NCBI GenBank assembly: GCA_012295275.1
Contig: CM022672.1
Span: forward strand, 15,686,001 to 15,750,000
From: Chrysomallon squamiferum
Taxonomy: Eukaryota > Animalia > Mollusca
DNA: 64,000 nucleotides
Reading direction: 5' to 3'
Part shown: positions 3,154-55,767 of the stretch, one piece after another
Position numbering within the stretch: the first letter of the stretch is position 1
Layout: the number at the start of each line of letters is the position of its first letter
The notes under the pieces: model-generated
Seen by the model: the letters and a program-made list of their open reading frames with translations, nothing else
Databases searched by the model: none
Told to the model about the DNA's origin: nothing
Made by a program: the position numbers and the translations under genes

Positions 3154-3437
3154 CTGCATTTGCCTTGACATCAATGCTGACCTTTCCGTACATTCTCGGG
3201 AATCTCCGTGACTGTTTCCTCGTGATGACGTAAGGCTGTCATTCCCGGCATTTCTTTCGGTGTTCTCAAACTGATCTTCTGGCAGGTCGTCTTCAGGGTT
3301 GTCGATCACCATATATGGAACATCATTTTCCTGCTTAATGGACACTGTAAGCGGCATGCGAATACTTTCTTTTTCCACCGAGTCCTGAGTGGCAGAGACT
3401 TCGTTTTCGACTGAGGCATTTGATGTGTTAAGTTTGT
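3154..3437 (-). CDS. Gene A constant coding exon 2 (low-complexity linker with IKQE motif)
   Basis: ttttcag|AC acceptor at 3437 (phase 1), in frame with ORF 3115..3378. Donor ATGCAG|gtctgt after 3154 (phase 0). Motif ESIRMPLTVSIKQEND matches gene B ETIRLPLNVKVKEEND. Confidence 0.8.
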
Positions 3438-3805
3438 CTGAAAATGTGACAGATCGTATAATTATCAGGTATAGAAAAATAGTTAAAATGTCCGGCGTAA
3501 TAATTTAATTCCATTGACATTATTTTCTTAACGTGTGTTGCGCGTATAAAATGTTCGTTATTATTATATAATTTATTTCATCTATTTACTATATATTGCA
3601 TTTATATATCGTTGTTCCTTGTGGCGATATTAAATAGTAATAATTTGTATACATACTAACTAGAATTTAATTAATCAATAAAGCAATTGTTATTATCATT
3701 ATTATTATTATGTTAACATAAAAATTAGAATAACATTTGAAATCAACAGAAAATGAACACAAATTTATATTAATAATACTGACATACATAATACTTTTAA
3801 ATTAC

Positions 3806-4328
3806 CTCGTTTATGTGGAGTTGTGGCATCTGCAATGGAACCGGTTCGTTTCAGAGACTTCGCCTCAGAATGCTGTACATTATGACTTCTACTGGAACCG
3901 AGATTAGTATCAAACAAGGTTGAATTTGAAGATGCGTACTGACGATCGCCAGCGTTCAGAAAGGACTGTTTTGAAACAAATGAATCAGTTTGTCCTCGCT
4001 GATGAATCGTACTCGATGGTGGTTCCTTCTGTCCCCGAAACGATCGATCACGAGGACTGATGTTTTCAACACCTCTGTACCCTGCTGATACTGCGGGACC
4101 TTTTCGGACTGTTTTGAATGCTTTGGTGCAGTAACTTTCACTGATGACGTCTCCTGAACTCTGGACCAGTTCACTAAGGACGTAGCGCTCCTTTTTGCTG
4201 TTATCTATCTCCAAACAAAGATATCCACTAAGTTCTACAGCCTGTTCAAAATTGAGATAATCACGACATAGTTTCTGTACAGAGTCAATGAAACAGGCGA
4301 AAAATTCCACAGAATACTGTTTTTCCAT
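3806..4328 (-). CDS. Gene A constant coding exon 1 (conserved uncharacterised ~76-aa N-terminal domain plus linker)
   Basis: ATG at 4328 just after a ttttttcag acceptor (exon start ~4333). Donor CGAG|gtaat after 3806 (phase 1). 55/76 residues identical to the gene B N-terminus by hand alignment. Confidence 0.88.
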
Positions 4329-13393: not shown

Positions 13394-13424
<31 letters not shown>

Positions 13425-21536: not shown

Positions 21537-21850
21537 ATGGAAGTCATAACTAGCAACAAAGGTGGTCAACAGTTAATATTCAATGGTTTCATATACACGA
21601 AACAGATAACTAAGCCTCATAACATAAGGTGGCGATGTGTACAACGCACTACTGACTGTAAGGCAACCCTAACCACAACCTTGGTTATTGATGATCAAAA
21701 GTTAATTGCAGCTCATAACCATGATCCATCGGAAACAAAAGTGGCAGATGTCAAGTGCTGTTCTCAGATGAAGAGCAAGCCAAGAAAAGTTTCGACAAGC
21801 CAAGCCAGACAGTAACTGAAGCCATGAGTCAAACTGAAGGAATTGCCAGG
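21537..21850 (+). mobile_element. MULE/Mutator-like transposase 5' remnant with FLYWCH zinc finger
   Basis: MEVITSNKGGQQLIFNGFIYTK...RWRCVQR..CKATL....HNHD fits the FLYWCH pattern. The frame shifts and truncates shortly after. Confidence 0.78.
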
Positions 21851-34816: not shown

Positions 34817-35757
34817 GCTTTTTCACCCCTTTGACTTACTTATGTAAAAGTAAAAATACGTTTCTGTTTCAGCAAAATGCTCTTTTTAAATCAATATCTT
34901 TCTGATGTAGACTTAATCTTTTGAAGTTGAATCAGTTTTGACGAAATATAGTTTTCGTCTTTACATATGGAAGACGACTACATATGTCTTTGCAATTTGT
35001 TTACTTTCCCATATCGAGGATAGATTATGCAGTAAAATAGAAAAACTTAGTGGCGCCCGTAGGCAGATGCACTATGATTAAATAAAATGTATCTCTTAGA
35101 AAACTGGGGGCGCCATTCTCTTCAAAAATCGCTTAATAAAACAATTAATTTTAGAAAAGATTTGTTTTCTAATAGTCCTAATTATATTATCAGTTGTGCA
35201 GAACATACGGGTAACAATATATAATAAATGGAAAGGACAGTTCATTATTAGCTTAGTTTGTCAGATTCGTTGCAAATACCTCGAGCTTATAACAATCAGT
35301 TTAAAGCAGATCAGAATTCAGTAACTACTGAATATAAATATGGTATAAATGCTGCTATGATTTATCCGTAAAATAACTTATCAGTTTACGAAAGAAAGAA
35401 AGAAAGAAAAAGATTAATTTAAAAATATTTGAATAGCTAAAACAGTTGCCAGTGAACTTTAAAAATAATCATAATTATGTATACAATATAGTTTAAAAAA
35501 AAAAAAAATTCTTTCTTTTTGTGAAGTTGTGAGTGAACATTTGTTTAATGGTAACTCAGTACATTTAATTAATATTGACAACGTTTTCCTGAAACCTCCT
35601 CCTTTTACTGTCATTTATTAAGACGCATGGAAAAACTCAATCCTCGGCCACTGAGCATTCGTTAGACATACCACTGATATTCAGTCATGTTACAATGCCA
35701 TAAATTTGGCCTACTGTCAACCACTTATATAAAGGCCAATCCTTTGGAAAGTACAGA
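34817..35757. repeat. Right arm of the inverted duplication; contains the likely gene B core promoter
   Basis: Matches 31010..31973 in reverse. TATATAAA at 35726..35733. Confidence 0.93.
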
Positions 35758-35892
35758 CGTGCCATTAGTGGTTACAGTTTATGCCTATAAAGCGCGTTTC
35801 ATTCTCGAAGGGAAATAACTCTATATGAAATATATCGCGCAAATTGTTGTCTGACGACGCCTCTTGCCATTCGATTTTCTTTCTTTCTGGAG
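35758..35892 (+). other. Putative non-coding first exon of gene B
   Basis: Begins ~25 bp after TATATAAA and ends at GGAG|gtaatt (35892). The next acceptor is tttctgtttcag at 36780, 6 nt before the ATG. Confidence 0.5.
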
Positions 35893-36015
35893 GTAATTGT
35901 TGTTTTAAATGATATCTTTAAACGAGTAATGTTAACTGGCTTTAAAAATCAAAAGCGATTTGGATCAGTTACAGATAGAAGTATTCTATGGTAAAATGTA
36001 ACCACTGACAGTAAT

Positions 36016-36025
36016 CAAAATGGCG
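36016..36025 (+). promoter_or_regulatory. YY1-type motif CAAAATGGCG in the first intron of gene B
   Basis: 124 bp downstream of the putative exon-1 donor. Confidence 0.45.
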
Positions 36026-36786
36026 CAGGCTCTAACATTGGAATGCGTAAATAGAGGCCCCATTTAGGTGGATAGCGTAAATAAAATACAGATACCTATT
36101 TGACATTTGTTTTTAAACCTAATTATTGTTTAATCAGTAATACAATTATATTTTACCATAACGACGTACATATGCAAACGCATTCATTAAATTAAATATA
36201 ATAATTAATCAAAATTTAAATTTATGAAACCATGGAAATGCTTTGTATTCTAGTATTTGTATTTTGTATTTGAAAAGGACATTTTGAAACAGATTTCTCT
36301 ATTTATTTTTATCATCTAATTTAAACAATTTATGAATTTTAATGTTTTATACATCTGTTGTATGTTGTTGTTCCGAGATCACAACCTGTGGCATTAAAAA
36401 AAGCACATTACAGTTGGTTAGTTTGTTTACGTAACAGTGTTATTCACTTAAGGTAATGAGTAATTATACATCTGAGAAATATTTCCCCACAATCTGTGCA
36501 ACTTACAAATAATCCTACCCCTATCACTAACTTCATCACAACCCAAACCATAACTAATCACAGGTATAACCAAAAGAAAACCCTAACTCTAACCATAATC
36601 CTAACCCTGATATTGTTCTCTAAAATTTAAATCATAACTCTCACCCTATATCTGAAGTTGCTATTATGATTATGCTGTTGTATGTTCAAAATGTTAAAAC
36701 ATTTGTGCATGATATGTTATCTTTATTCGATTTATAATAATAAATGATATTAAGTATGGATTATTGTATTTCTGTTTCAGGAGACA

Positions 36787-37255
36787 ATGGACAAACAATA
36801 TTCTGTGAAATTTTTTGCCTCCCTCATAGAAAGTATACAGAAAGTGTGCAGAGATTATCTTGACTTTGAACAGGCAGTAGACATCAGTGGCTACCTGTGT
36901 GTTGAGATAGACAGCTATCGGAAAGAGAGATATGTTCTTAGTGAACTTATTCAAAACACAGGAGACATTGTCAGTGAAAGCTACTGCACGAAAGCTTTTA
37001 AAACATTGAAAAAGTTTCCCAGTGATGTTGGAGGAATTGAAAACAGTGAACTCACACGGTTGTCAGCATCAGCAGAGACCTCAAACATCAGCAGGATAAA
37101 CTCGCGTAGATGTGAATCTTCCAGCAGAACATCTGGATACAATACAAGCAACACAGAGTCTGGTTTCTGTACTAATCAAAGGAATCCTTATAAGTTGTTA
37201 CCACCAGGCCTAAAAAGAACGATACCGTGGCAGAATCGGTCATCACCAAAAAGAG
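36787..37255 (+). CDS. Gene B constant coding exon 1 (conserved uncharacterised N-terminal domain plus linker)
   Basis: ORF 36787... Acceptor at 36780. Donor AAGAG|gtatat after 37255 (phase 1), at the same KR-G position as in gene A. Confidence 0.88.
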
Positions 37256-37545
37256 GTATATCTTCACTTTAGACTAAATTATTATTTTTTAAATCATGTA
37301 AAAAAAGAAATAAACCAGTGAATTGGATATTTGTTCTGGAAATTTGTACTTAAAATAGAAGATTTTTAATTTGTTTTGTTATTGTGGGGTTTTTTAATTG
37401 AAAAAAAAAAAAAGAACATTTCAAAAGAATCTTATTTGAATTAATCTCTTAAATGTAATATACATCCATTTTTATTTAATATTTACAAGAATATGTTCAC
37501 AATATAGTGGTGCAAAAGAATTCATTTCTAAAAAATTTATTTCAG

Positions 37546-37976
37546 AGAGAAATGAATCATACAGAATCAGCCAGGAAAATAGTGAAGACTATTCCAATGT
37601 TCATCATTCCGGCAGCAATAATTATTTACCCGAGCCAGCTTCTGACAGTATTGTGCTACCTGTAAATACACTGGATAACACCAGTTCATCAGCATCAGTT
37701 GCAGAAAACAGTACTTGTAACACTGTTCCCAGTGTGAATGAAACTATTCGCTTACCTCTCAATGTCAAAGTTAAAGAAGAGAATGATAGTTCTTTTATGG
37801 ATGAGCAGGGTTATGAAAATACTAGGATGTACAGTGATAAAAATTCACAAAATTCATATATTCATGCACAGACTGAAAACAACGAAACATTGCCAACGTC
37901 ATCATCATTATCGCCAGGGGACCAAGAAAATGCTCACACTGCCAGAAAGATGAAAGGTCATGTGAAACTGTTTCAG
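37546..37976 (+). CDS. Gene B constant coding exon 2 (S/N/E-rich linker, VKEE motif)
   Basis: Acceptor tttatttcag|AG (phase 1), open and in frame with ORF 37653... Donor TTTCAG|gtaatt after 37976 (phase 0). The constant region totals 300 aa. Confidence 0.85.
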
Positions 37977-39047
37977 GTAATTATACATTCAAAACAAATA
38001 ATAGATAATTTTTAGTAATGGTTATAATGAATAAGTATCCAGACAGCATAGATACCTTTGGGGAAAAATAATGTAGCTGGTACAAAACCATTGCCTTGTT
38101 TTTCCAGCTAAGAGAGTGAAAATGTGTCATTTTTTTATTAAACAGAAATAATAATAACATACAATTTTGACTGAGTTACGGTACAAGAATGCAGGGTGGA
38201 TATTTCTTCTCGCCCCACTGTTTTTTGAAGGAGTTAGTTGGTTTATGTTGAAAGAATATGTGTAAATACAAACATGTTCATCAAACTATTGCTTGAAAGA
38301 GGAGAATTCTAAAAGACTTCATTACTTACACTTTTATAAGTATAACATAAATATGTTTGGTTTGAGTAAATCATGGTATGGAATTCTGTACTTATTATTA
38401 AACAGTAAATGTTCTATAGTCATTAATACCCCAAAAATAAATTGAATTTCAATGACAATTTTAGGAGATGTTTAAAAATAAAATATTAACACATATTTAA
38501 ATAAATAGTAATATTTTCTAAGACTTTTACTCTTAGGAATTAACTATATTACATGCTAATGGCAAAATAATTAATAAAATTTGTATTGGTTTATTCACAT
38601 CTTATTGCATGTATGTATGTGCGCACACTATGATATTCGAAGATATTCTTTGCTAATATAAAAAATAAATGTATTAAATTTTTGGTCATTGTAAGTTAAC
38701 AAACAGGTTAAAGCTTGAACTTGAATAAGCTAATTATGCCTCATGAATACAATAAATTGAAAAATTGAATATGGAGTCATGTACAAAATAACATGCATTA
38801 TTCACTGCTCATTATTAATAGATTCCATTTTAGCATTTTAGCATTTTATTACGGCTTTAAAAGTATATTCACTATGGAATTAGAATTAAAAGCTTAATTT
38901 AATACTGTCTGCAGAAACATTTTTCTTCAGCATTAGAACATTTAAATACATTTTTTATCCTGTCTATATTCCAGGAATATAATAATAGTACTGGTACTTT
39001 TCTGAAAACAAAAACTTGATAGATATCATTTGTAGTTTATTTTAACT

Positions 39048-39048
<1 letters not shown>

Positions 39049-39092
<44 letters not shown>
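39049..39092. repeat. (CT)n microsatellite
   Basis: Seen directly. A (TG)n tract also lies at about 39823-39856. Confidence 0.9.
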
Positions 39093-39104
<12 letters not shown>

Positions 39105-39820
39105 CAAAATAACAACAATAATGAAAAGATTTAATACCAGTCTGTAATATTGGAGTAAGCTGATTTCAGTGTGTTTGTGTGTGTTAATAGTTTCTGATGT
39201 ACATATTGGAAAGTTAATAGCATACTAAATGAAGATACACTTCATTTTAAATTAAACTGCATATTTTGTTTGGTTGTTTACTTCACAAAGTAAACAAAAT
39301 ATAGATATATTTATTATATTCTAGTGTTTCCAAATTACCTTGTGAGTGAAATGACTTGTATAATAATATTAAACATATTTTCAAACTGAATATACAGAAA
39401 CACACACAGTTCCCAAATGATTATTTATAATTACATACAATATTAATCTTTTCTTTTTTTATTAATAAAACACTAGATTATTATTTAAATATGAAGATAT
39501 ATCAAGACTTAAAAAGAAACCATTTTAAAAATAGAATGTATTATTTTACCAATACTTTTAAGTATTTGGGATGTGACTGTGATTGTACTTAAGGGATACA
39601 CGAAAGTCACCTGACCAGTTTTATCAATGATCATGGTTTGGGTTTTCTGTCAACATTAATCAAAGCTCTTAAGTTTAAACTGTATTAGTAACTCGGAGGG
39701 ATTAATTTGGGGATTTTTATAGACGGGAATTCATATGCCTTTAAATGTAAAACAACACATCACAAATCCAAATACTCTATGAGGAGGGTATAAATGAACA
39801 ATTTTAGCACTACTGTAATT

Positions 39821-39871
<51 letters not shown>

Positions 39872-41213
39872 TATAATATTTTTGAATACTTATTTCCTAC
39901 ATCTGAATTAGATACTTACATACATTCCTACATTAGAATTATATATATTTTTATTTCTTAACTTATAGCAGTGAAATAAACATGATAGATTATGCACTAC
40001 ATTTACCCAGTAACAAATAACAGTAGATTACATTGCTGATGTAATAAACATAAAGAATATTTTTTTTGTACCAGTTAAAAATATTCTTGCTTGTCATCCT
40101 TTTAAACTTTTTTCTGTTTCTGGGTTCTTGTGTTGTTTTGAGGGGGGGGGGGTTATGTTTTTTTCTCTGCACTATCCTTTTGTACTTTATTCTACTTTGT
40201 TTGTCTCTTTCCTTTTCACCTTTTCTTTCCTTTTGTACTTTTTTCTAAGTAAAATTTATAGTTATCATTTTTTTATACCACAAAATGTGTCCAAAGGTTT
40301 CTCTTTGTTGCATGTTTCTTTATTTCTTGAAGTATTTTCAATACTCTAATATCATAGATATTTTAGATGTAGAGAAGTATCAAGTTTCATTAATTTCAAA
40401 CTACATGTTTTAAAATGAAGTTAAGAAATTACTCAGTATCTAATATTTATATGAAAGATAATTTTGAATAAATGGAAAAGGTTATTATAAGGATTGTGTG
40501 TTTAAGTTTATCCGACATCAAAAACACTAAGGAATGCATCTTCTTAGACATTTTGTCCTTAAATTTTGTACTTAAATATATCTTAGTTAGGGAAAATAAT
40601 CTATAAACAAAATTAATTTTCACAAAAGACACTTAGCTTTTTTTAACATTTTTACTTTTTAGATAATTAATATATTCAATATTGCCATAATGTTTGGTAG
40701 CGTTACACAGTAAAAAAAAAACCCCAAAATGTATATATTTTCCATGATTGAACATCATCTTTTTATACATATTTCTTTAAGTACCATCACTTCATTGGTT
40801 ACTTGTTCAATACTGCAAAATGCAGTTCAGTAAAAGCAGTTTCTGTTTTCCTTTTTAGACACATGGCTGTTGTGCAAAGTACTGTAAGCAACTCATAAAA
40901 AATAACTAAAACTGTTACTGTTTTATGTTTCAATCATTCTATTAATTAGCATTAGCTAAAGAGGAAAGAAAGAAGGAAATGTTTATATTGTGTGTTATTT
41001 TTTCACCTGTTGCAATCATTCTAATTTCTAATACTAATACAGAAAATACTGGTTAAAGAAAAAAAAAAAATAAAAAAAAAATAAAAGGAGAAAGAAAAAG
41101 AAAAACTGTCAACTTAAGAATTGTGACATGGGCACTTTTTGCATGCTAAAATGTGTTGTTGTTTGCACAGAGTGTGGGACTGGATACTGACATTCTTAAA
41201 TTCTCCCATGCAG

Positions 41214-41714
41214 GTCACCACAGATTCCCAGATGATTTCTTCAGACTCACATACACCACCACCACCTTCAGGTATTACACCCCAGGGCTCTCAGGTAATA
41301 CAACAGATGATGCTGAGCAGTGAAGGAGAGACAGTTGTCAGTAAAACGAGAAGTTGTTTCGAATGCCAGAAATGTTTTTATACATTTAGAGACTTGGCCC
41401 GGTACAAAGAACATCTGCAGATATATCATCCAGAAATCTTTTACTGCGAAATCTGTGGCAGGAGTTTTGATGATGAGCAGTGTTTTTCAGACCACATCTG
41501 TGTTGTGAACCATGAAGGAAAGAGAAAGTTTCCTTGTCCTTACGGAGCTTGTTGCAGAAGCTTTGCCAGACAATCTCATTTGATGGACCATGTGAACACT
41601 CATTCAGGCCTCAAACCATATATTTGTCCCAACTGCCATAAGCATTTCACAGGAAAGTATATTTTTAACCGCCATTCGAAGACTTGTTGCAAGAAAGAGG
41701 AGAATAATGAATAA
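41214..41714 (+). CDS. Gene B alternative terminal exon B1: four zinc fingers, 166 aa
   Basis: Branch TACTGAC plus ttctcccatgcag|GTC, phase 0. Fingers CQKC..HLQIYH, CEIC..H, CPYGAC..HVNTH-SGLKPY and CPNC..HSKTC. TAA stop. Confidence 0.85.
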   Translation, partial: VTTDSQMISSDSHTPPPPSGITPQGSQVIQQMMLSSEGETVVSKTRSCFECQKCFYTFRDLARYKEHLQIYHPEIFYCEICGRSFDDEQCFSDHICVVNHEGKRKFPCPYGACCRSFARQSHLMDHVNTHSGLKPYICPNCHKHFTGKYIFNRHSKTCCKKEENNE

Positions 41715-43739
41715 GTGACTGCTTTTCTCTGTGACTGGTGTCAGCTGTTGCTGTGTACATGCAATTTAAAACACAAGTCAGAGATGAATAAGAAATAAGT
41801 GAATTCTTTTCGCTGCACCTTTTAAACAGTTGTTATTCATGTAACACGAACTCATTTGAGATGTATATTGGAAGAGGTGAATACAAGTGAATAATTTTCT
41901 GTGGCATGCGTAAACAGTTATTTACATGGAATCTAAAACACATCAAAAACAGGTGAATTACAAATAAGGTTTAAAATTCTCAGTGACTAGTATTAACAGT
42001 TCTTTTTTCTTTTTCTTTTTTAGTGTATGTTTTGACTATTATCATTTACATGTCAAAAATCTAAAACATTTCTTCAAGAAAGTGAATAATAGAAAAAAAA
42101 AAAAATGGCTTCTGAGCTATTGCAGTTTATATGTTATCAACTGATCAAGTAATCTAAACTAAATCTTGAAAGAAATGAATAACAAATAAGAGAATACTTT
42201 TTACCATGTTACACGTAGTCTTGTTACTTATATGGCATAATCTGAAACCCTTATCCTGAAGATAAAACTTATTTCAAGTTACAAAATTACCTCAGGGCAT
42301 TATTTTATTAATTTAAGTTACATACATACATACATCTGATGAAAGATTTAACAAAAACTTGTTGTTAACGTATTGTTTAATCAAAGTTGTTTGTTTAGTG
42401 CACTGTTCTAAAATATTTGATGTATTTTATACTCGGTAATCTCTGTATGTGTGTATTGTTGTTCTAAATAGATATTCATATTTATGTGGGTTTTTTTTTT
42501 TCTTTGTTTGTTTACTGTAAGTGATGTTTAGTTAATTATTAAACTAATTGGCCAGCTCTTGTTCATTTTTATATTTATTTTGTTACTTATGTAAGGTTAA
42601 AATTTTGTCATTAATTTTATGAAATGTCCATGAAATGTGAAGTGCAATGAACTGATAATGTAATAGTTCTAATACAGTTCTTCATGTAAATTATAATTTA
42701 CGGGTATGCAGTGAATGATTCCTTTTGGTATATTTAACTCTAAGATGTTTAAAAACATATTTACAAACTGAATTCACATTCATATCATTAAATATAATAT
42801 TCTCGATTTTTATTTTTATGATTGTTAGTATTATGATGATGATAATGTAACTTTCCAGTAAATATTCTTTCCATTTCTCATTAGAATAAACATCAATCAC
42901 ATACAGTGCATTCCTATTTAATTTTTTTTTAAATGTTTTTTTTTTATATATATATATATAACATGTTAGAGTGCCTACATTCTCTTTCTCACTAAAATCA
43001 TACACTTATTTATGTAATACAACCTAGTAAATGGTTAGAATCTTGGAAAATAAGTACATTCTACAGGACAAATAAGTGCATCCATCTTTACTTTGTTTCA
43101 TACCTTGGCCTGCCATGCATGTTATAAAAGTCTTATACAAAAACATTGACACTTAGTAGTGTATGTGAGAGTAAAGCCTGCAAAATTTTAGTTATTTTTT
43201 CAAGTTGTGATTTATTTTGTCTACATTTGTAACTTTAAAATTTGTTGCATAAAAGTAAGTAAATAATTCTGTGCAAGGTTAATGTCAAACTTTTACTCTA
43301 CAGTCATTGTTTAGTTGTAAAAAAAAGCCATTAATTACATATGGTTGAAGATATTTCTAGTTTTTTATTTTGAAGACAACTTCTATTTTGTGTTGTATTC
43401 TTGGAATAAAATAGAAAACACAAATTGCTGAAAGATGCCAGTTAGCCCTGTTTGCTTTTTTATATTGTGTTGAGATGAGAAGAAAAAAATACTGGAAAAT
43501 TAATCATTCTATAATGAATCATATTTTTTTATTATTATTATTAAAAGTCACTGAACCACTCAAGTACAAAAATAAATAAATAAATAAATAACAAAATTTA
43601 AAAAAAAGAAGAAAAAAAGTTTGGGTTGTTTTTGGGTTGACCTATAATTGTTGATTCATCAAAGCTGCTTATTGTTTTCGGCAGGGATTAATGGAGGCCA
43701 TATGTATTAACTAAAAGATTTTCACCTTCTCCCATGCAG

Positions 43740-44192
43740 GTATCTTTGGAGCCCCAAAAGTCACCTTCGTCAGAAACCTTACCAAACTGCAACAAACTTG
43801 CAAGTCCCTTGCCCAACATTGGCAGCACAACTGAAGAACAAAGAGGTTGTTTTCAGTGCAAGAAATGTGTGTCTGTTTTCAAATACAGGCAGGAACGTAA
43901 AGAACACATGGAAATGTGCCATCAGGAGACTTGTTACTGTAACATTTGTGGCCGACAGTACAAGTACAAACGGTCACTGTGGGAACACACACTGATCCAC
44001 CAGGGAAAGAAAAAATTCATTTGTCCTTACAAAGACTGCGGAAGAAGGTTTGCCAGAAGGGTTCACATGGTGGATCATTTGAACACCCACTCGGGCGTAA
44101 AGCCTTACGTGTGTCAACAGTGCACTAAACAATTTGGAAACAAATACACTTTGCTGAAACATGTAAAAGTGTGCGAAGGGAGAATAAACTGA
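43740..44192 (+). CDS. Gene B alternative terminal exon B2: four zinc fingers, 150 aa
   Basis: ccttctcccatgcag|GTA, phase 0. Fingers CKKC..HMEMCH, CNIC..HTLIH, CPYKDC..HLNTH-SGVKPY and CQQC..HVKVC. TGA stop. Confidence 0.85.
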   Translation, partial: VSLEPQKSPSSETLPNCNKLASPLPNIGSTTEEQRGCFQCKKCVSVFKYRQERKEHMEMCHQETCYCNICGRQYKYKRSLWEHTLIHQGKKKFICPYKDCGRRFARRVHMVDHLNTHSGVKPYVCQQCTKQFGNKYTLLKHVKVCEGRIN

Positions 44193-44983
44193 AATATAAG
44201 GTTTACTGTTAGAAAATCTGTCAGGGATAGTTAGAGAATTTCATTATTAAAGTTTGGATACAAACTGTGGCTGTGTGATGATACATTTTAATGATTAGAA
44301 ATAAAAAGTATGTCCTGTATTTGCTTCCATGTTTTTTTTCTGCTCAATGTGGAAAAACTACACATTTTATTCATTTATTCTGTTTTTTGCAGAAATGGTT
44401 ATAATTAACAAGAGTATGGTTATTAAAACCTTCTTAAAATAGCTGCTTCATTTTTATTTTATTATTATATTTGCTTATGTTGTTTATTATATTATATTAT
44501 ATTTACTTTTATATTCAAATGAAGGTTTCAAGAATGTCAAAAATTATAATTTCCTTTGTATCTTTTCATACCAGGACTACTGGTTGAATAAACTGAACAA
44601 CTGATCACAAGTGATACTTGTGTGATATTTATTTAGTACTTAAAAGCTTTGCATGATATAAAATGTCTGAAGTGTTGATGCATTGGTGTGTTAATTGGAC
44701 ATGTAGGCTATTTGACATTGAATGGCTGAGTTCTTTTTAAAAAGCACTGGCATGGCTTCTGTTTTAAATTTGAAAATCCAAAACCAAAATCAAAATAGGA
44801 GAAGAAGACAGTGTCTTGTAGATCTCTTAAATAACGACAAATGTTACTTACTGATTTAAATACAAAATAATTTTAACCAAAAAAAATCCGAAAAATAAAA
44901 CACTCAAGAAAGTGAGATTAAAAATAGAAGGAAAAAAACAGAAAGCTTATTTGAATCTTAAAGATTTTCTTTTGGTTTCGCAG

Positions 44984-45154
44984 GTTTCAAAAGGCCGAAG
45001 CCACTTTCGCAGGATGTATTCCCGCTCGGCCCTGCATTATGCCTGTTTGGCCATCAGGGACGAAGGGATTTCCATTCGAGCAGCTGGACGCAGGTTCAAT
45101 GTTCCTGAAGCTACTCTGCGATATTATCGAAAAAGACAGAAACATGATAGCTGA
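44984..45154 (+). CDS. Gene B alternative terminal exon B3: pipsqueak-type helix-turn-helix, 56 aa
   Basis: ttttcttttggtttcgcag|GTT, phase 0. YSRSALHYACLAIRDEGISIRAAGRRFNVPEATLRYY fits the psq/CENP-B N-terminal HTH pattern. GC-rich island in AT-rich DNA. TGA stop. Confidence 0.82.
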   Translation, partial: VSKGRSHFRRMYSRSALHYACLAIRDEGISIRAAGRRFNVPEATLRYYRKRQKHDS

Positions 45155-46759
45155 ACTTTAAAAAAAAAAAAAAATTCAGTTAGCAAAAAGTAAACACTGT
45201 AAGAAATTAAAATCAACCCACAGAAGAAAAAAATTGAAAAAAAAAAAATTTAAATGAATACGGTAAAAGCAAAGACTCAGGAACCAAATCAACCAAAGAT
45301 CTACTTCTATGTCAGTGCCCATGTTACTGGTTCCAAAAATTATTTAATTATTATTAGAAACTTGTTGATATTATTATTATAAACCATTTCATTCTATTAA
45401 ACCATAAATTATTTACACACACATAAGAAATAAAAAAAACATGAAAAAACAATTGGATCTTTGTCCAGAAATGTTTTTTCACTCTAAAATGATTGTATAA
45501 GATTGAAACTGGGTAAATAATCAAAAGTAAAACAGATCTGTGGTGTATTAGTCTGCAGTATTGTTATCAATAACAACAAACAAGTTGGCAGTGTTACAGT
45601 GATGTTAAATAAATTTCTTGATCAAATGCAAGTTTTCACCTGTTATTTGTTGATGTTAACATAATTTTCATAACTGATCAAAGGAACAGATGTGTTTTTG
45701 TAGGTACTTATAAACAAATATGTTTATTTAGCTGTAATTTGCATGTATCAGGTTTATTCAACTTTTGATTATCAATTATTTAATATTTATTCTTTTATGA
45801 ATGGTTTGTATATAATATTTGTCAATATAGCTATTTTTCTTTTCTTTTGTTCTTGAATAATAATTCTAAAAAAAATAATCAATATTTACAATAATTCTGA
45901 ATCAGTATTTTTATTTTATCAATGGTTTATGTAATAACAGTTTTCCAAAATCAGTATTTTACTTATTGATAATCTACCAACTCTTAAGTGGAACACAGAA
46001 CTAAAATTAATGGAGCTGAATCTTTTAATTATAGTGCAGTTCCTTGGTTACATGTGGGTTTCTTTCTTGGATGACACTTATAATGTACTTGCACACATGG
46101 AATATTGTATGTTTGTATATGTATTAGAACAACTTTCAATACTTCATCAATACTTTAATGATAGAAAAAACAAAATTAGAAACAGAATACAACACTGTAC
46201 ACTTACTAGAAAGTTTTGAATACTTTATTTATGTTTTAATTGTAGTTTAAACTCTACAGCTAGAAAAAACTAACTAGACTTCACAGAACAGCTGTTATAA
46301 ATACAGAGTATTACACAAGATTGAAAAAGATTCCCATATTTGAAATACACCATTCAAATTTTATGTGACTTACATCTTGAAAATTATGATTATTAATAAC
46401 TGAGAGTTGTGAAATTGCTCCCATTATAATAAAAAACAATGGAGATTAAATGTCAAGACACATCAATTTTTGGAATAGGGCAATTAAAAATATTCCCCAG
46501 TTTAAAATACACAAAGATAGTACTTTAAAATTGTAATAATAATAACTGAGAATATTATTGTGAAAAAGTTCATATGATGAAAAATTCATGGAATACATGT
46601 ATATGTGTTGATAAATATGACTGAAAAGAAGTATACACCCGAAAGATGTGACATTGTAATTTATTTTGATATTGTAAAATCCTTCTGTGTATCTATCCTT
46701 TAAGAACACAAGTAAACATTACTCACACTGAGAAACATAATACTGCAGAAAACTCAGTT

Positions 46760-47065
46760 CAAATTGTGATTATGTGAAATATTCATTAAAATATCAATTC
46801 TGAATATAGTCTTTTACCTAAAGTAAGTCAGTATTCATTTAACTGCTGAAAGCTTTGTTTTATTTCCAGAAATGTGAAACGGTCTTTAAAATATCAATTC
46901 TGAAAACAGTAAATCAGTATTCAGAAGAAGGCTGAAGACTTTAAATTGTTGATGTGTGAAATATTGATCAATTCTCAATACAGAATGTTAAAACGATATT
47001 CAGATGACTGCTGAAAGCTTTGTTTTAAATTGTCCATGTATGAAATGTTTGTTAAAATATCAAAC
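46760..47065. repeat. Degenerate tandem repeat, about 3 copies of ~100 bp
   Basis: Recurring tgtgaaa..aaaatatcaattctgaa..tcagtattca..ctgctgaaagctttgtttt. Confidence 0.6.
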
Positions 47066-47095
47066 AAAAACCTGAACTGCTCCCATTATTTGTAG

Positions 47096-47323
47096 AACCT
47101 TGGCTTGAGAGAGAAGATGAGAAAGCCCAAGCGAGACAGAGCTGCATACATGAGGATGTACAGATGGCGAATTCGACAGAAACAAATGAAACAAAGTGAC
47201 TGTTTGTGTGAAAGTCAGAGTTTCCCAGTGAACGAGGATGTTCTGTACACAGATTTACAACAAGTCAGTCAGGACAGTTTGCATGCAGACATTGTGTGGG
47301 TCAATGTAGAAAAAAAATCTTGA
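47096..47323 (+). CDS. Gene B alternative terminal exon B4: basic helix, 75 aa
   Basis: ctcccattatttgtag|AAC, phase 0, in frame with ORF 47105..47323 (KPKRDRAAYMRMYRWRIRQKQ). Confidence 0.62.
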   Translation, partial: NLGLREKMRKPKRDRAAYMRMYRWRIRQKQMKQSDCLCESQSFPVNEDVLYTDLQQVSQDSLHADIVWVNVEKKS

Positions 47324-48639
47324 ACTCAGTAATTTTTTTAAGAAGAGACACCAACTTGTCAATTTCGAAAGTGACTACAAACAATTTTCATAAAAATACA
47401 GTGCTTAAAATATATTAATTATGGTGTAACATTTTGCAGAATACAAGGACTAAAATGTGTATCTGAATGAACATGGTTATTATGCTTATAAATATGACAA
47501 CAAAATTTTATATATATATGTATATATATATATTAGTTAAGATACTGTCCTTCAAATATATTTATTTGACCTTAAACATTTTGGTAAAAAAGAAAAGTCT
47601 TTGTGAATTCATGTGATATACAACTGACAGCTAATTAAGTTTCTTTTTTTTTAAATACAAATGAAGGCTCTGAAGTTTTTCAAATGTAGATGATATTTAT
47701 TTTTATTTAAAATAAATAATAATAATAATAATAAAAGCAGAAATAAGTAATAATGAAAGTATGTCTGTTTTGATATAGATATTCCTATAATAATTATATA
47801 ACCTGAGTAATTTTATTCATGTATAATGCATGTTATATGTTTGTGTTATGTAGATCATATGACTATACATATTATGTATGTATACTAAAACATGTTTAAA
47901 CTCATAAAAAATGTATTATTTTGTAATGTGACAGTACATTATTTTCTTACCAAATCTATTTGTTATGAAACATCATTTAAAATTGTTAAAATAGGTGCAC
48001 AACAATAAATTTTGGAAAACAACGGTGACTCAGTCTTTCAAAGATATTAACTTGGAAAGTAACAGTAACTTTTATTTTATTTTTTTATTATTATTTTTTT
48101 TTTTTATTTGGGTAAAGAATCATTTCTCAACCTTTTTACCCTTGTGGAACCCTTGAAATTTTTTCATGTCTCAGGGAACACCTGCATAAAAATTATTATA
48201 TATCATTATTATTATTGTTCTCTTTTATATTTTTATCGTAGTTCACATGATAAACATAATATATTGTTTTGGATAACTGGTTAAGGACAAAAATTACTCC
48301 TTTTTTTTTTTTTTTTTTTATTGATAATGACAACAACAAAAAACAAAACTTTTCAGTCAAAAAAAAAAAAAAAAAAAATCTGATAGCATATATAAAATAA
48401 ACATAAATAACCAGCATTACATTACATATATATAACACACACAATCAGAACAAAAGCAGGTGATTATTACAGTAACTCATTGCTTATTGACAATGTTGAA
48501 AAAGAATAAGATGTCTTAGAAATAAACACCAAGGATGACCAGAAGATTCAGAGTATGGATCCCTCATTTAATCAAATATGTGAATCTGTCATTATACAGG
48601 GTCAGATCACTGACCACTGACCAATAAAGGCGGTTTCTC

Positions 48640-48950
48640 AAGATGATTATTCTTATTTGTAAAATGTGGACTAAATACAACTTCATGATTGTTGTTCATA
48701 AAATGTGGACAGTATACAACTTCATGATTGTTGTTCATAAAATGTATACAGTACAAAAGGTGATGATTCTTGTTTGTAAAGTATGCATAGTAGACAAGTT
48801 GATGATTCTTGTGTAAAAAGTGTACTGCAGACAAGGTGATGTTTCTTGTTTGTAAAATATGCAAAGTATGTTAATTGATTCCTGTCTGTAAAATGTGGAC
48901 TAAGTACAAACTGATGATTATTTTTGTTTATAAAATTTGTATAGTACACT
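48640..48950. repeat. 39-bp minisatellite, about 8 degenerate copies
   Basis: Unit ttcatgattgttgttcataaaatgtggacagtatacaac (48682..48720), repeated from 48721. Confidence 0.8.
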
Positions 48951-49929
48951 AATCTACTAGTTTCATTGCATATAAACCAGTACATGAATTTTATTATAAT
49001 TATTTTTATTATATAATCAGTTATTGTATCTCTGAAAATCTCTTTTCTCGTGGTTATTGGAAAAATAATGTATTCTGTCTCCAGGCTTTAGTCATTTCAC
49101 ATGCATATGTATATATTGTTCCATTGTCATAAGACAGTAACTGAACATTCCATTTAAGTTAAATGTGAATGTAACAAGTTATCAAACAAACTGCACAGAA
49201 TACAATGAAAACAATATTCATTTGTTGTGGAATATTACAAAACAAAAGCATTCTTGTCTATTCACAATCAGTTAAACACATGCTGTAGTCTTTTTGGTTA
49301 TCTCCCTCTTTATATATATATATATATATATATAGAGGTAATGCATGTGTGTGTGTGTGTGTGGGTGTTTGTATATGCACTCGTGTGTGTGTATATGTGT
49401 GATATTTCCATTATTATTTCATTAGTTAAATTAATTCAGCATGGCTTTATGGCTTTTCTTGTTATGCAGAAATAAATTGACAAAAAAAAACAACCAGAAA
49501 CCAATCTTTTCATTATTTATTTCTTTAATATTTGTTTTTTGTTGTGTTTATTTATTTATTCATTTATTATTATTATTTTATTACTACTACCACTACTATT
49601 ACTAGCACCACCATCACCACTATTACCATCATTATTCATTCACTACTACCACCAGTATTATACTCCACTACTATCACTATTAGCAACATCACCAGTACTA
49701 CTTCTACTACCATTAATACTACTAGAACTTATACTATCACTACCACTACTACAACAACTACCACCATCAACATTACTTATACTACCACTACATCAAAACC
49801 TTCTACTACTACTGCTGCTGCCAGTACTATGCTAACTACAACTACTACTGTCATTGAACTCCACCATTACTATTATCATCAACATTATTCCTTCACCAGT
49901 GATTTCTTAATGTACAAAATTTATTTCAG

Positions 49930-50220
49930 GAATTCCTGCATTCCAAAAAAGAATTTCGACCAATGCTAGAGATCCCACCAGGTGAGCTGGATCCATTACT
50001 AGGATTGTTTTTTCTCAGCCTTCAGAAGGAAAATGGTAAAGAATATGAGCCGTACTACCTGAAAAACATTTGTTCCATACTTGGCCGTTACTTTCGCCTC
50101 AATAATTACAAACCAAGTCTGAAAAGTGAAGCTTTCTCACGATCTCGTCAAATTCTGCAAGCCAAAGTGAATCGTCTTATACAAATAAGAAGAGCTGAGA
50201 CACTGGAGAGAAAGCAGTAG
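49930..50220 (+). CDS. Gene B alternative terminal exon B5: Crypton/DUF3504-type (ZMYM/QRICH1/KIAA1958-like) N-terminal helical region, 96 aa
   Basis: tttatttcag|GAA, phase 0. EIPPGELDPLLGLFFLSLQKENGKEYEP..LK....LGRYF....F..SRQILQAK resembles the conserved ELD.LL..FF..VRK.DG.EYEP.SL block. No catalytic recombinase half follows. TAG stop. Confidence 0.8.
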   Translation, partial: EFLHSKKEFRPMLEIPPGELDPLLGLFFLSLQKENGKEYEPYYLKNICSILGRYFRLNNYKPSLKSEAFSRSRQILQAKVNRLIQIRRAETLERKQ

Positions 50221-50456
50221 AAAATGTAACAAAATTTTTATTATTATTATTATTATTTAAAAAAAAAAAATTCATATTATCATTCACTTATTTTATTATT
50301 CTTTTTTTTTTCCTTTCATTTTATTTGATTTTTTTCACATTTTGGGAAATCCAAATAGCTGCTATTTATTTTTTCATCATTCCCCATTTATTTATTCATT
50401 CATTTATTCTTGACATTATTATTTCAACTTATTTTTTTTCTGTTTTTCTTTATCAG

Positions 50457-50546
50457 ACAACACAAATACATACAGAGAACAATACAGTTTCACGTTTTGG
50501 GAAATCCAGAATCTGGAAGGTTTATTTCTTAAACCCACGTAATTAA
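50457..50546 (+). CDS. Possible short gene B terminal exon B6 (29 aa, no recognisable domain)
   Basis: Very strong acceptor ttttttttctgtttttctttatcag|ACA. The phase-0 reading is TTQIHTENNTVSRFGKSRIWKVYFLNPRN*. Confidence 0.3.
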   Translation, partial: TTQIHTENNTVSRFGKSRIWKVYFLNPRN

Positions 50547-53500
50547 AATGTAGCTGTTCTTATTGAAATATTTTCGTAAACTGAAAATTATTTTTTTAGT
50601 ATGTCTGAATGTGTTTGTTTAATAAGGAATCTATTTTGTTTTATCATGCTGTATGTCATGTAATCCAGCAACAATTGTCTTTTTCTCTTAGAAATTCAAA
50701 GTTATTATTTGCACTTATACACAGTTCAAATTTGCTTAAAAATAATTTTGCACTTGACTGTCAAAGATTTTGAATTTTTAAAAATTTACTCAACAGTATG
50801 ATGATTGTGTAAACTCAAAATTTACTGATAGATATCATTAGATTGTCAGTACACCACAGGATCAGTATTGAGACCAAATGGCAATTTCCAGGTACCAGGC
50901 AACAAAATACATACACAGAAAAAGGCAGCAACAAATGAAAATACTGCTCAGTAGTCCAACTCCTTCCCAGCAAACATTACATAATAAAATATACATCTCC
51001 AAAAATAAATAAATAAATAAAATAAACTATTAAACTGTAATTTTTATTTTTTTATTTTTTATTTTTTGTTATTCTGAAAAAAGTAAGTAGGTGATTATAT
51101 TCATTACTGTATATAATGTATATATATATATATTTTTTTTTTTTTAATTCACATTTAGTAAATAAATGAGAAACATATTTATTAAACTATCAAGTTTTAT
51201 TGGGTTTTTTTATGTCTATATATATATTTTTTGTTTAATCACATTTAATAGATAAATAAAATATGTACCTGTTTTTTGGTTGTGGATATCTTGAGAAAAA
51301 AAATAACCACACAATTATATTTATTATTATATATTATTTACATATTTTTTTTCCCCTTTTTTTAATTTAATCACATTTTGTGAATAAATGAAAAAAAAAA
51401 TATATATAAAATATACATATGTATGTATATATGCATTAATAAATATTATTTATTTATGTATTTCATTTTAAATATATATTTTTTTAAACACACATTCATT
51501 AAATATAAAATATTTACTTTAGTTTTATATTTATATTGTTTTGCTAAAAAATATCTTACAAAATACATTTATGAGAAATAAGCTATCTCCTTTAAATTCC
51601 CGAAAAGACAACAACTTATTTATCTATCATATTAAAAATTTCTATAAATCACAAATTTATTAATTATAATTGATTTTATTAATAATAAAAATGTAAGTAA
51701 AAATAAATAAAAACAACAACAAAATAACTAAAAAAACAAAAACAATTTGTTCTTTCATTTGTCCTTTTCTGAAATAGAAAGAAATGATTTGATTTAAATT
51801 TAAGTTTAATGATATCATAATAACAATGGTTATTAGATGTGAGAATGATATTTGTATTTATTAAAGATTATATCAAGAGAGAAAAGAACTGTTATAACAC
51901 TATGAGTTACTCTTAACAAGTACAGAGATCTTTTATATGCACCTGCTCACAAACAGTAATTTTTGCAGCAAGCTGAAACATGAAATAAAAGGGTAGATCT
52001 TTGACCATATTTTGTCAAAATGAACAGTGATATACATTTTTATGACCCAAAATACTTGGAACATTCAATACATTTTTGACAAAGAGTATGAAGTGTTGGA
52101 AGTATTACATGTACATGCCTATATTTCTATATCACATTCAATAAGAGTAAGGAATTTTTATTTACATTGCACTCTGAGTGAAAGAATGGAGAAATGTCAA
52201 AGGAATTTTCTTTAATGCCTTTCAAACAAATGGCTATTGCCCCCAAGAGGACAGCATCACCCACTGTGGTGATCACTGGTTTAGACTGTCTGCATTTCAC
52301 AGTGGCTATAACATCATGTAACTACAAGTATTCATTTCTTTATGCATAACTTACAGCATATTTTCATGAAGAGATGACCCAGCCAATAAATTCCTTTTTT
52401 GATTTTCTTTTTTTTGCTCTTTGATCTTTGAAAGAAAATTTACATAATAAATAACAATATACTCAAACAGAATTTAGCTCTGCTAATGTAGTGAAGTAAG
52501 TACTGTTCATCTATATTTATTACTGCCTTCTTTTTTAATGAAACAATTTTAGTTTGCAAATTAACTACCATTAAAATGTTGAGGATTTTTGAAGTTTCTG
52601 GATTTCAGAATTTCTGACAACAGGTTATCCAAGTGTGTTTTTTCTTTCATCAAATCCTAACAGTATTTTATCAATTACATTTTATTTTATCTTTACATGT
52701 AAAATATTTCTGATTAATTTACTTCAACTGCTTAAAGATGGTTGTATCTTAACTAAATGAATGATTCTGAAAGAGCAACATGAGAAAATAACACAAGGGA
52801 AAATTTTAAATGTCACACAATGATTTCTAAATGACCAAGTAATGTGTTTTCATATTTTAATAACTCTATGAAGTATTAAAAGTTACTCACTTGGGTGTTT
52901 GAGTTTGTACCTGCAGAATCAACAAAATTTCTAATTAAAATGTGCCTGTGTAATGTTAAATTTGAGAATAAAAAAAAATTGACATTTTGTTTACTTCCAA
53001 ATTATTTGTTTTTAGAAACCATCTCTTGTGAAACATAACAATAATTAAAAAAAGTACACCTCTATGGCAATTCATGGAAGATGTAATTCTACCTTTTAAA
53101 TAACGATCTTGTTTATTTAATGATTACATATAACCATCAGCAAGAATACGTAAAGTATCTTATTTTTATTAACAAGTCTCAAGCCAGAAGTCCAATGACC
53201 ATCTAGAACACTCTCTGAAGACTCACTGATATTAGATACAATCCAAACACTTGTTTTTCTACTCATGAGATTTTAAAAATATCTTTGCAGTGATCTGTTG
53301 AAGGTTAAAATGACTGTTTTTATTAATAGAAAAAATAACTATGCAAATATTAACAAGTATTAAACCTTGTTTATACTTGATCCACTTACCTCTGACATTT
53401 TATCATCAGCCTCACATTCAAATATCCACTTAAACCGAGAAAGATCTTTTTAAAAAGAATAAAAAACAACCAGAAGTGAATAATGAACGAGTTAATGGAC

Positions 53501-53884: not shown

Positions 53885-55767
53885 TTAATCTGGAAATATG
53901 ATTTTGATAAGGTTTCTTTTCTGACATATATAGTGACAGTAATAGTGATGTAAATGTGTGACAGGTTTTGTATAAAGCTTGTTTGATTTGTGTTAGTATA
54001 AATGGAAGATTTCAGGGGAGGCAATGATGAATAAAAAATTAGGCAAAATAGTAACATAATTAGGAATAAGAGAGATTTTGTTTTTTCATCAAAGTAAAAT
54101 AAGAATGAAATTTAAATTACTTCATTGTGATACTTTGGCAACTGTCGGTCAATGGTTTGGTTGAAATTATGGTTCTGAATACATAATTATGTATCACATA
54201 ACAAATGGCTTTCTGGGGATTTCTTTAAGTGATACTTCAAAGGGAAAGAAACAAAAGAAAATATATATATACCATGGTGTTGTTACTTAAGTTTGATTTA
54301 TTTCCAGTCATCTTTCTGACATGAAATTCTGTCAGCTAATAGTGATAAAAATATTCAATTAAAAATAAAATATACCTACCCAAAGAAAAAATGTAAGTAA
54401 ATAAAAATAAATTAACAAAAAATTATTTAGAAGAAGAAGAAGAAGAAATGAAAGAAAAATTCATTAAATAAATAAAATAGTAAATTGATAATTACAGATG
54501 GATTGGCTAACTCAACATAATTTGGACTGTTTGAAATTTAAATTACCCAATTATCAGATTGTTTGGTTGGAGACCAGTGTTACCAAGAAAACTGTTCTTC
54601 TGAGAAAATAAGCATGTATCCAATAATTAACACAGGCATAAATAATTAAAATGTTCATTTTTATTCATCCAGAATAAGAGATTTTTTTGTGGGGGTTTTT
54701 GTGTTAGTCGTTTTTTCATCATAGTAAAATAAAAGTTTGTAATTTAAATTACCTCATCTTTTATTTTCGGTGATAGGCCAATACTATCCAGGTAATTTTC
54801 ATTCTGAAAATATAATTATATATATATGTGTGTGTGTGTTTGATTTTTCTCTTTGGGAAATACAAGACTTTAATCTTTACCCTGATTTCAGTGATAAAAC
54901 ACATTCAAGGCTGTCAGTCAAACAGTTCCAAAGATGTGAATTTAATTTGTAGGGGCCATTTGCAGGGGACATTTTGAAGAAATATAAATTAAAGGCCAAT
55001 TCTGAAGATGAGATTGTCTCTGACAAAGCTTAGTTCATAATGTTATGCGTTGGAAATATTCAGTTTAACTTTTTTCACAACTCTGCAATGTATATTTACA
55101 TTAATATAAAAAGCCAAAGCTGGCAAAATCATACATTTGCACTAGAAAAAAAAAAAAAAAAAAAAGCTTATAAAATTTGTAACTTCAGAGCTGTCCTACA
55201 AATATAGATTTCATTCCAAATTAATCAGAGTGAAAAGATCAAGACAATGAAGGGATAAATTAGAAAATCTGAAACGTTAATTTTTAGAGGGTTCATCTTT
55301 TATCTTTTGACAAATTGCAGTTTTCTTCACAATCTCTTAGTGCTAGTGAAGACTGTATAAAAATAAAAATGATGTGTTGAGTGCCCTTTCCTCCTGAGAG
55401 AGGGGCTCAGAGCAGTCTTCAAAGAGTATGTTGAGGACACACGGACAAAAATCAGGGTGGGATTTACCTACTTGCAGGCCAAACTCTAATCAATGGGCCA
55501 CCAAATTTATAGAAATGTTGTATCCAATACTATATATATATATATATTTTTAACTGTAATTTTTTTTATTGAAATGGCCAAATGTCAACAAATGCTACAT
55601 AATACTATAATGTAAATAATATGAATCATTACTTTTAATCAGTTTTATATCATGGACATCTTATATATGGGAATATAGATTCACTGGCATGTACATATGT
55701 TTCTGAATACATTTTAATGGGAAACCGTTTTAATGTGGCAGTCGATTTTATGAGACAAATATCCACC

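Follow-up and report, generated by a model that had tools for sequence, protein, structure and literature searches.

A gastropod gene that joins one constant N-terminal region to a psq last exon and likely to other alternative endings with predicted DNA-binding modules

The closest described systems are the genes lola, mod(mdg4), broad, tramtrack and fruitless, in which constant N-terminal exons are joined to alternative last exons with DNA-binding modules, and the gene of the snail Chrysomallon squamiferum described here has a similar layout. In the available text of PMC11426971, at least 30 isoforms are given for mod(mdg4) and 20 for lola, and the TTK-type BTB is described as confined to arthropods. 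Many modules are short, with about two fingers, in the Tramtrack-group BTB genes and in the snail family alike. Unlike the Tramtrack-group genes, the snail gene displays a front domain without BTB by Pfam, predicted to consist of one helix and four strands; moreover, in contrast to the arthropod TTK-BTB genes, the matches of its family are molluscan and many loci per genome carry arrays. The snail gene works like lola and mod(mdg4) and is not a member of the TTK-BTB genes. The first-pass annotation had proposed an independent version of the design on a different N-terminal domain, in agreement with the non-BTB domain and the molluscan hosts.

Gene duplication is the main source of diversity in the KRAB-, SCAN- and ZAD-zinc-finger families, which likewise have a lineage-restricted N-terminal domain that expanded ahead of C2H2 fingers. 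The snail family differs from these in its front domain, as a Pfam scan of 81 members matched 23 families, with none of KRAB, SCAN and ZAD among them. KRAB-transposase fusions, an example of transposase capture by host effector domains, were reportedly described by Cosby et al. in 2021. Like such fusions, the snail genes combine a host front domain with transposon-type modules (psq, Tc5/CENP-B, piggyBac-type finger, BED, Crypton), but several modules serve as alternatives in one gene; the comparison with transposons is one of domain types. With the Crypton-derived DUF3504 genes (KIAA1958, KCTD1, ZMYM2-4/WOC, QRICH1) the gene shares homology to the lobe preceding DUF3504; unlike them, it retains the N-terminal lobe alone, interrupted by an intron, and carries unrelated endings in addition. 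In the available text of PMC3212892, KIAA1958 has two isoforms with different DUF3504 exons and the molluscan family is not mentioned. A literature search on the design, the domain, the species and DUF3504/Crypton, with most subscription journals outside its scope, found no description of the family.

Constant region, front domain and candidate last exons

The window, i.e. the whole stretch of 64,000 nucleotides that was analysed, contains the features collected in Table 1. The two constant exons encode 300 aa and end at a phase-0 donor (GT at 37977), as the first-pass annotation had it. Its five coding islands were likewise confirmed, each frame being open from the acceptor to its own stop (5/5), and recomputation returned the same isoform lengths of 466, 450, 356, 375 and 396 aa. 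The first coding exon aligns to residues 1-159 of Gigantopelta aegis P0002, in which the last 18 residues of the constant region are identical and the exon switches at the same residue as the donor of the window gene.

Table 1. Positions of the gene, its candidate last exons and its paralogue in the window
Feature	Position	Strand	Remarks
First coding exon	36787..37255	+	acceptor just upstream, ATG at 36787, phase-1 donor at 37256
Unnamed N-terminal domain, 76 aa	36787..37014	+	96 relatives at E<=0.001
Last constant exon	37546..37976	+	low-complexity linker, then first helix of Crypton-type lobe, phase-0 donor
Last exon 1, four C2H2-type fingers, 166 aa	41214..41714	+	Pfam zf-C2H2 E 5e-9; GC island
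Last exon 2, four C2H2-type fingers, 150 aa	43740..44192	+	Pfam E 4e-13
Last exon 3, psq helix-turn-helix, 56 aa	44984..45154	+	Pfam HTH_psq 25.7 bits, cut-off 20.4; spliced to 37976
Candidate last exon 4, Arg/Lys-rich stretch, 75 aa	47096..47323	+	GC island; use inferred only
Last exon 5, rest of Crypton-type N-terminal lobe, 96 aa	49930..50220	+	stops before DUF3504
Sixth candidate, 29 aa, unsupported	50457..50546	+	no GC island, no Pfam match
Paralogue constant exons, 4328-3806 and 3437-3154	3154..4328	-	269 aa, same front domain, same intron phases (1, then 0)
Paralogue last exon A, C2H2, 230 aa	1737..2429	-	53% identical to tail of G. aegis isoform X2; Pfam
Paralogue last exon B, C2H2, 240 aa	349..1071	-	62% identical to tail of G. 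aegis isoform X1; Pfam

The five islands are the sole 150-nt intervals with a GC content of at least 0.40 between 37977 and 50800 (0.40-0.49, as against 0.26-0.27 in the introns). Little can be concluded from the shape of the acceptors alone, since a scan downstream of the donor for phase-0 YAG sites with frames of at least 40 aa returned 66 sites, of which 25 pass a loose pyrimidine cut-off. The zinc fingers read in islands 1 and 2 and the psq module in island 3 all pass Pfam. The island at 49930, described as Crypton-type, holds the N-terminal lobe of such a region but not DUF3504 itself. The label 'basic helix' for 47096 reflects sequence appearance and finds no Pfam match; exon 4 was also not among the best 10 of 1107 frames with a profile built from seven basic tails of the family. 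The proposed ending at 50457 was not upheld, as it is not a GC island and no homologue of it was found. AATAAA is present after every last exon, as expected in AT-rich DNA, so poly(A) sites are not fixed by it, and an Rfam search of 35000-52000 gave no match.

On sequence comparison, exon 2 is best described as an old duplicate of exon 1, with the same residue in 52 of 117 codons, a dN of 0.41-0.60 and a dS of 1.4-1.6 or saturated. The two exons, with dN well below dS, differ at finger positions -1, 2, 3 and 6 in all four fingers (in finger 3 at one position only), while the Cys/His pattern is kept despite a dS near saturation.

The AlphaFold2 model of the front domain (pLDDT 83.9) displays a helix at residues 7-24 followed by strands at 30-41, 45-56, 61-63 and 66-72. 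No Pfam family matches the domain, and the observation of no recognisable BTB is borne out, as none appears even at E 5 in the window domain or at E 0.01 in a Pfam scan of 81 family members. Foldseek with the model gave no match at E<=0.001, and the best hit of a PDB sequence search had an E of 0.88. VIA-align reached at best a Z of 4.5 (rmsd 3.8, 66 aligned), with none at Z>=5 among 48,161 chains, a result that excludes no family. A search of the ESM Atlas by features found no match for the domain; by structure it returned four mollusc-only clusters (TM 0.77, scores below the acceptance bar) with no Pfam family over their aligned part. Homodimer prediction scored 0.02 against a mark of 0.32, which is evidence neither way as the alignment was unused and the fold is uncertain. 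By analogy, the front domain may be a protein-interaction module taking the role that BTB has in lola.

RNA contigs and the proposed choice of last exon

RNA contigs of four runs (X1-X4) from one study were viewed over 43630-45160, which covers exons 2 and 3. The junction from the donor at 37976 to the psq exon at 44984 is present in two of the four runs, in one contig of X1 (depth 36) and one of X4 (depth 2.4). In these contigs 26 (X1) or 27 (X4) loose letters and a shared CAG precede 44984, and the loose ends correspond to 37948-37976 and 37947-37976 of the window, respectively, i.e. to the end of the constant exon. The 29-30 letters on the constant-exon side are fewer than the 31 required for a bridge. 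These assemblies are taken to have used k=31, which fits the 30-letter overlaps seen between contigs. If it is colinear, the end of the X1 contig would fall near 45513. The first-pass annotation had suggested a search for junctions from 37976; the one to 44984 was found, whereas the one to 43740 was seen in none of the four runs, though contigs cover exon 2 in three of them. The start of the X4 contig also argues that the 43740 junction is absent from that assembly graph.

Contig starts were simulated for 64 exon sets at k=31. A gene using the psq exon only gave no contig break; the 29 exon letters of the X1 start were obtained only in 4 of 64 sets, which include 49930 but neither 41214 nor 43740 nor the intron, and the 30 letters of the X4 start only in 3 of 64, with 47096 and/or 50457. 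The psq-exon contig starts thus require a rival continuation from the donor, which we infer to fit 49930 in X1 and 47096 or 50457 in X4. The X4 start cannot separate exon 4 from 50457, and the branching would fit any other exon with the same first letters.

Unspliced contigs run across the acceptors in X2, X3 and X4, hence part of the RNA cover may be pre-mRNA or DNA. Contigs extending upstream through the acceptors of exons 2 and 3 are also what exon-specific transcripts would give, if the variable exons had their own promoters and were joined in trans to the constant exons, as mod(mdg4) works according to the available text of PMC6237743. Such an arrangement is very unlikely here, as pre-mRNA or DNA would give the same unspliced contigs, all candidate exons lie in order on the strand of the gene within 13 kb, and a search of the opposite strand near the gene revealed no family-type tail. 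Splicing would occur most simply in cis, because all the exons lie in order on one strand.

The missing 43740 junction also bears on whether the gene has just one or two working endings, the psq exon and perhaps the Crypton lobe, with the remaining islands being relics or rarely spliced passengers although relatives use full arrays. The single isoform annotated for the G. aegis orthologue and the lack of DUF3504 in exon 5 point the same way. This is nevertheless improbable, as all five frames are open from acceptor to stop, exons 1 and 2 have retained their Cys/His pattern through near-saturated synonymous change, the contig starts of X1 and X4 call for two distinct rival continuations, and the relative P0143 terminates close to where exon 5 does.

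The gene is therefore read as splicing its last constant exon to the psq exon and, in separate transcripts, likely also to each of four other last exons, so that one front domain would reach different predicted DNA targets (probability about 0.85). The first-pass interpretation is supported to the extent of one junction and the same layout in the gene models of relatives, while the other four endings are likely but not each seen. Competing 3' acceptors would choose the last exon, coupled to a separate RNA end after each.

The split Crypton-type lobe

The donor cuts a Crypton-type helix, which begins in the constant exon and is completed by exon 5. The fifth island displays 46% identity to a DUF3504 protein (E 6e-23), whereas Pfam QRICH1 is matched at E 0.13 only, and DUF3504 (PF12012) is absent from the window gene by Pfam. 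The constant tail and 49930 together rebuild the lobe without a gap, as evident from a match of 108 bits, against 85 for 49930 alone, to a profile built from 18 of the 19 relatives tried. The lobe of exon 5 matches 18 of the 19 relatives tried (E 5.7e-23 to 1.6e-5), and nearly identical motifs span the position of the junction in Haliotis P0127, Solemya P0141 and Pomacea P0191. In G. aegis P0002 the same donor residue is joined to a different, complete DUF3504 exon (E 1e-24). As the donor and 49930 rebuild the split lobe without a gap, 49930 is likely the ancestral ending.

The completed helix also bears on the least credible account, in which each island would be a small gene of its own or a piece of a transposon, and the array only an apparent one. 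Psq and Crypton modules do derive from transposons, according to the available text of PMC10027918 and PMC3212892. The window holds just two copies of the front domain, none of them belonging to the islands; for exon 3 the account is contradicted by the splice to the constant exon, and the helix begun there argues against it for exon 5. Presumed transposase-like fragments elsewhere in the window speak in its favour.

Under the favoured reading of alternative last exons, the ancestor would have comprised the front domain and a domesticated Crypton-type region. The intron cutting the first helix of that region may then have gained new phase-0 last exons (duplicated zinc-finger, psq, basic), and the old Crypton ending would survive, shortened, at 49930.

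The family in gastropods

The front domain heads a gastropod-wide family; all named matches are molluscs, the closest being the snail Gigantopelta aegis. In Gigantopelta, Aplysia, Biomphalaria and Physella, 13 to 18 retrieved C-termini stand on one constant region, with isoform labels up to X37, the RefSeq X-isoforms being computed gene models. Retrieved isoform proteins number 18 in Aplysia, 14 in Physella and 13 in Biomphalaria, and G. aegis has loci with at least 13, 16, 15, 13, 13 and 8 proteins diverging at one point. The C-termini include C2H2, psq, BEN, Tc5, piggyBac-type and BED fingers; piggyBac-type, BED and Tc5 modules occur in Littorina, Bradybaena and G. aegis LOC121382984. The mixing of unrelated domain classes in one array, which had been considered unusual, recurs in the gene models of relatives, e.g. 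G. aegis LOC121383526 with BEN, psq and C2H2 endings. DUF3504 is carried by 17 of the 81 members, including the G. aegis orthologue P0002, itself a one-member cluster without isoform label.

Single last exons are kept between species: all nine hand-picked pairs (9/9) share 49-87% identity, and among six Physella tails three match a Biomphalaria counterpart at 76-82%. No clear counterpart of exons 1-4 was found among the G. aegis tails listed. The paralogue in the window pairs with G. aegis LOC121384052, and the domain tree, built from 39 rows and 75 columns and with 4 of its 35 branches starred and an unsettled bootstrap, agrees with both G. aegis orthologue pairings, though it is too weak to order events. 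The first-pass annotation had missed the gastropod family, this second member and the helix split by the donor.

A broader proposal, for which the odds are about even, is that a lola/mod(mdg4)-type system arose separately in molluscs, and perhaps in other lophotrochozoans, on a domain without a named family or clear structural match. It would have begun as the partner of a domesticated Crypton recombinase, with the last intron as a landing site capturing zinc-finger and transposon-type DNA-binding exons, and would comprise a dozen or more loci and well over 100 isoforms in one snail genome. The finding suggests that the 'one scaffold, many DNA-binding ends' design arose independently outside arthropods, and the split Crypton helix offers an uncommon look at the possible beginnings of such an array. 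Public annotations list the family as ZBTB-like or KRAB/SCAN-like, which is misleading; among the snails and slugs concerned are Aplysia, Biomphalaria, Lymnaea and Pomacea, in which isoform use is testable in neurons and development. Gene-level counts would understate the variety of molluscan transcription factors, and if the shared domain oligomerises, isoforms across loci could assemble with one another, yielding an extensive combinatorial code in the control of transcription or in chromatin architecture.

Exon anatomy and RNA evidence

The first-pass annotation had described the main gene as a 300-aa constant region closed by a phase-0 donor and followed by five self-terminating islands, and this anatomy is confirmed in both coordinates and frames. 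Pfam recovers the zinc-finger and psq assignments made for the islands at 41214, 43740 and 44984, and no Pfam family passes for exons 4 and 5. Exons 1-5 account for all GC islands from the donor to 50800; a sixth proposed acceptor, 50457, has no GC island and is unsupported. Three more weak GC islands lie 3' of exon 5 (50827-50976, 52157-52386 and 55297-55536); they contain no long frame in phase 0 and match none of the family tails. A donor-like site near 35893 (window 35870-35900, +) may close a non-coding 5' exon of the main gene.

Features of the main gene and its paralogue in the window
Feature	Position	Strand	Description
Constant exons	36787-37255 and 37546-37976	+	300 aa; phase-0 GT donor at end
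Last exon 1	acceptor 41214	+	open frame 166 aa, own stop; C2H2 fingers pass Pfam
Last exon 2	acceptor 43740	+	open frame 150 aa, own stop; C2H2 fingers pass Pfam
Last exon 3	acceptor 44984	+	open frame 56 aa, own stop; HTH_psq passes Pfam
Candidate last exon 4	acceptor 47096	+	open frame 75 aa, own stop
Last exon 5	acceptor 49930	+	open frame 96 aa, own stop
Second family member	4328-349	-	two alternative C2H2 last exons; match to G. aegis isoforms

Between 36700 and 45200, a fraction of 0.29-0.33 of sampled words is present in four RNA-library runs of one study (X1-X4), whose assembled contigs were aligned to 43630-45160 (exons 2 and 3). X1 and X4 each have one contig whose unaligned 5' letters at 44981, read with the shared CAG, reproduce the 3' end of the constant exon, over 29 bases in X1 and 30 in X4. 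These contigs are the junction 37976 to 44984, found in two of the four runs, and their anchors narrowly miss the tool's bridge criterion of 31. The assemblies presumably used k=31, in agreement with the overlaps seen in the contigs. When 64 exon sets were simulated, no break arose for a gene with psq alone, a length of 29 letters needed 49930, and 30 letters needed 47096 or 50457; the contig starts would thus imply these rival continuations, or any exon with equal first letters. Among the junctions proposed from 37976, that to 44984 is borne out, whereas 43740 shows none in the contigs of X1-X4 over 43630-45160, although contigs from X2, X3 and X4 cover exon 2. An X4 contig beginning exactly at the exon 2 acceptor CAG is a hint only. 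Unspliced contigs spanning acceptors (X2, X3, X4) may be pre-mRNA or DNA. At window 44072, inside exon 2, one X3 contig has G>A, an allele or an error.

Splicing in cis is the simplest reading, because the exons all lie in order on one strand. Less probably, constant and variable exons are joined by trans-splicing in the manner of Drosophila mod(mdg4), as described for that gene in PMC6237743.

Origin of the last exons and the Gigantopelta orthologue

The end of the constant region encodes half of a Crypton-type helix. Together with exon 5 it aligns gap-free to a profile built from 18 relatives at 108 bits, as compared to 85 for exon 5 alone and 7-12 for the constant end before any other exon, and Haliotis P0127, Solemya P0141 and Pomacea P0191 carry nearly identical residues continuously across the junction point. 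Since the profile is thus rebuilt, exon 5 is likely the ancestral ending, and exons 1-4 are likely additions within its intron. The Crypton-type assignment of 49930 holds for the N-terminal lobe; the exon today stops before DUF3504. According to PMC3212892, DUF3504 genes derive from Crypton recombinases that were domesticated and lack a full catalytic site.

Exons 1 and 2 go back to an old duplication; the two methods that returned values put their dN/dS at about 0.28-0.37, and their predicted base-contact residues differ. An identical 13-base acceptor sequence (41201-41215, 43727-43741) is consistent with duplication of the exon along with its splice site.

The closest named relative, Gigantopelta aegis LOC121383525 (P0002; one isoform annotated), is 83% identical over the 76-aa N-terminal front domain (36787-37014) and has both constant exons in common with the main gene, including the final 18 residues before the donor. 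Beyond it lies a complete DUF3504 exon that encodes a first helix of its own and shares only 36% identity with exon 5; therefore, the same donor leads to a different ending in G. aegis.

The two isoforms annotated for G. aegis LOC121384052 are matched at 62% and 53% by the paralogue's last exons. Elsewhere in the window, exon-like frames at 9123-13849 (-), among them a ten-residue repeat frame (12264-12623), presumably belong to an ORC2-like gene, and broken frames at 15202-16713 (+) and 17324-18649 (-) resemble two decayed transposases. A 105-aa frame with a FLYWCH-like stretch (21498-21815, +), probably a transposon fragment, has no link to either family gene.

The front-domain family and its isoform arrays

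The AlphaFold2 model of the front domain has one helix and four strands (pLDDT 83.9), and no Pfam family covers it. A Pfam scan of 81 members finds no BTB, KRAB, SCAN or ZAD, in agreement with the earlier reading of no recognisable BTB. Position and conservation suggest an interaction module.

Searching with the front domain gives 96 representatives at E<=0.001, and the profile gives 217 proteins, 120 of them listed. Among the matches listed in these searches, the named ones come from gastropods in several lineages, Gigantopelta, Haliotis, Pomacea, Littorina, Batillaria, Babylonia, Nucella, Aplysia, Elysia, Biomphalaria, Physella, Lymnaea, Arion and Bradybaena, and from one bivalve, Solemya; no other phylum appears among them. 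The domain is present in 320 of 322 collected proteins, which form 34 groups with a common constant region and 112 singletons; in P0150 and P0153 (about 1650 aa) it lies ~100 residues in, with other regions present.

Family isoforms are computed gene models; three Arion entries are, we assume, transcriptome-derived. Six G. aegis loci have 13, 16, 15, 13, 13 and 8 retrieved proteins, those of each locus diverging at one point, and a few of these proteins share part of a tail (variable C-terminus). One cluster comprises 25 members. Groups reach 18 proteins in Aplysia, 14 in Physella and 13 in Biomphalaria, with isoform labels up to X28 (Pomacea) and X37 (Physella). The majority of tails are two-finger C2H2 modules; piggyBac-type fingers (Littorina) and a BED finger (Bradybaena) also occur, and classes are mixed within one locus (BEN, psq and C2H2 in LOC121383526; Tc5 and C2H2 in LOC121382984). 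Individual tails are conserved between genera. Of the 18 groups with at least four proteins, 10 (including one mixed-species group that should not count) have only V, A, D, E or G as first variable residue, as would be expected from a phase-1 junction after G.

DUF3504-type and many-isoform members have adjacent locus numbers in Pomacea (LOC112564034, P0191; LOC112564035, P0172) and G. aegis (LOC121383525, P0002; LOC121383526, P0036-P0043), and every named G. aegis match is on a contig of one size, 91.7 Mb, which suggests clustering of family loci in two distant snails.

Proposed mechanism and comparison with known systems

The proposal of a lola/mod(mdg4)-like design on a different N-terminal domain is supported: the working principle is alike, but those genes, according to PMC11426971, are BTB and arthropod, whereas the main gene has no BTB and a non-arthropod host, and therefore falls outside their membership. 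Transposon-derived psq and CENP-B factors are described for molluscs in PMC10027918, in whose main text 'isoform', 'Crypton' and 'DUF3504' are absent. No description of the front-domain family was found in the part of the literature searched, most subscription journals being outside its scope.

With a probability of roughly 0.85, competing phase-0 acceptors join the shared front part to varied predicted DNA-binding modules. The 37976 donor would choose among these acceptors, each last exon brings a stop of its own and probably also a separate RNA end, and one common front part would thus be attached to different modules, giving isoforms predicted to have different DNA targets.
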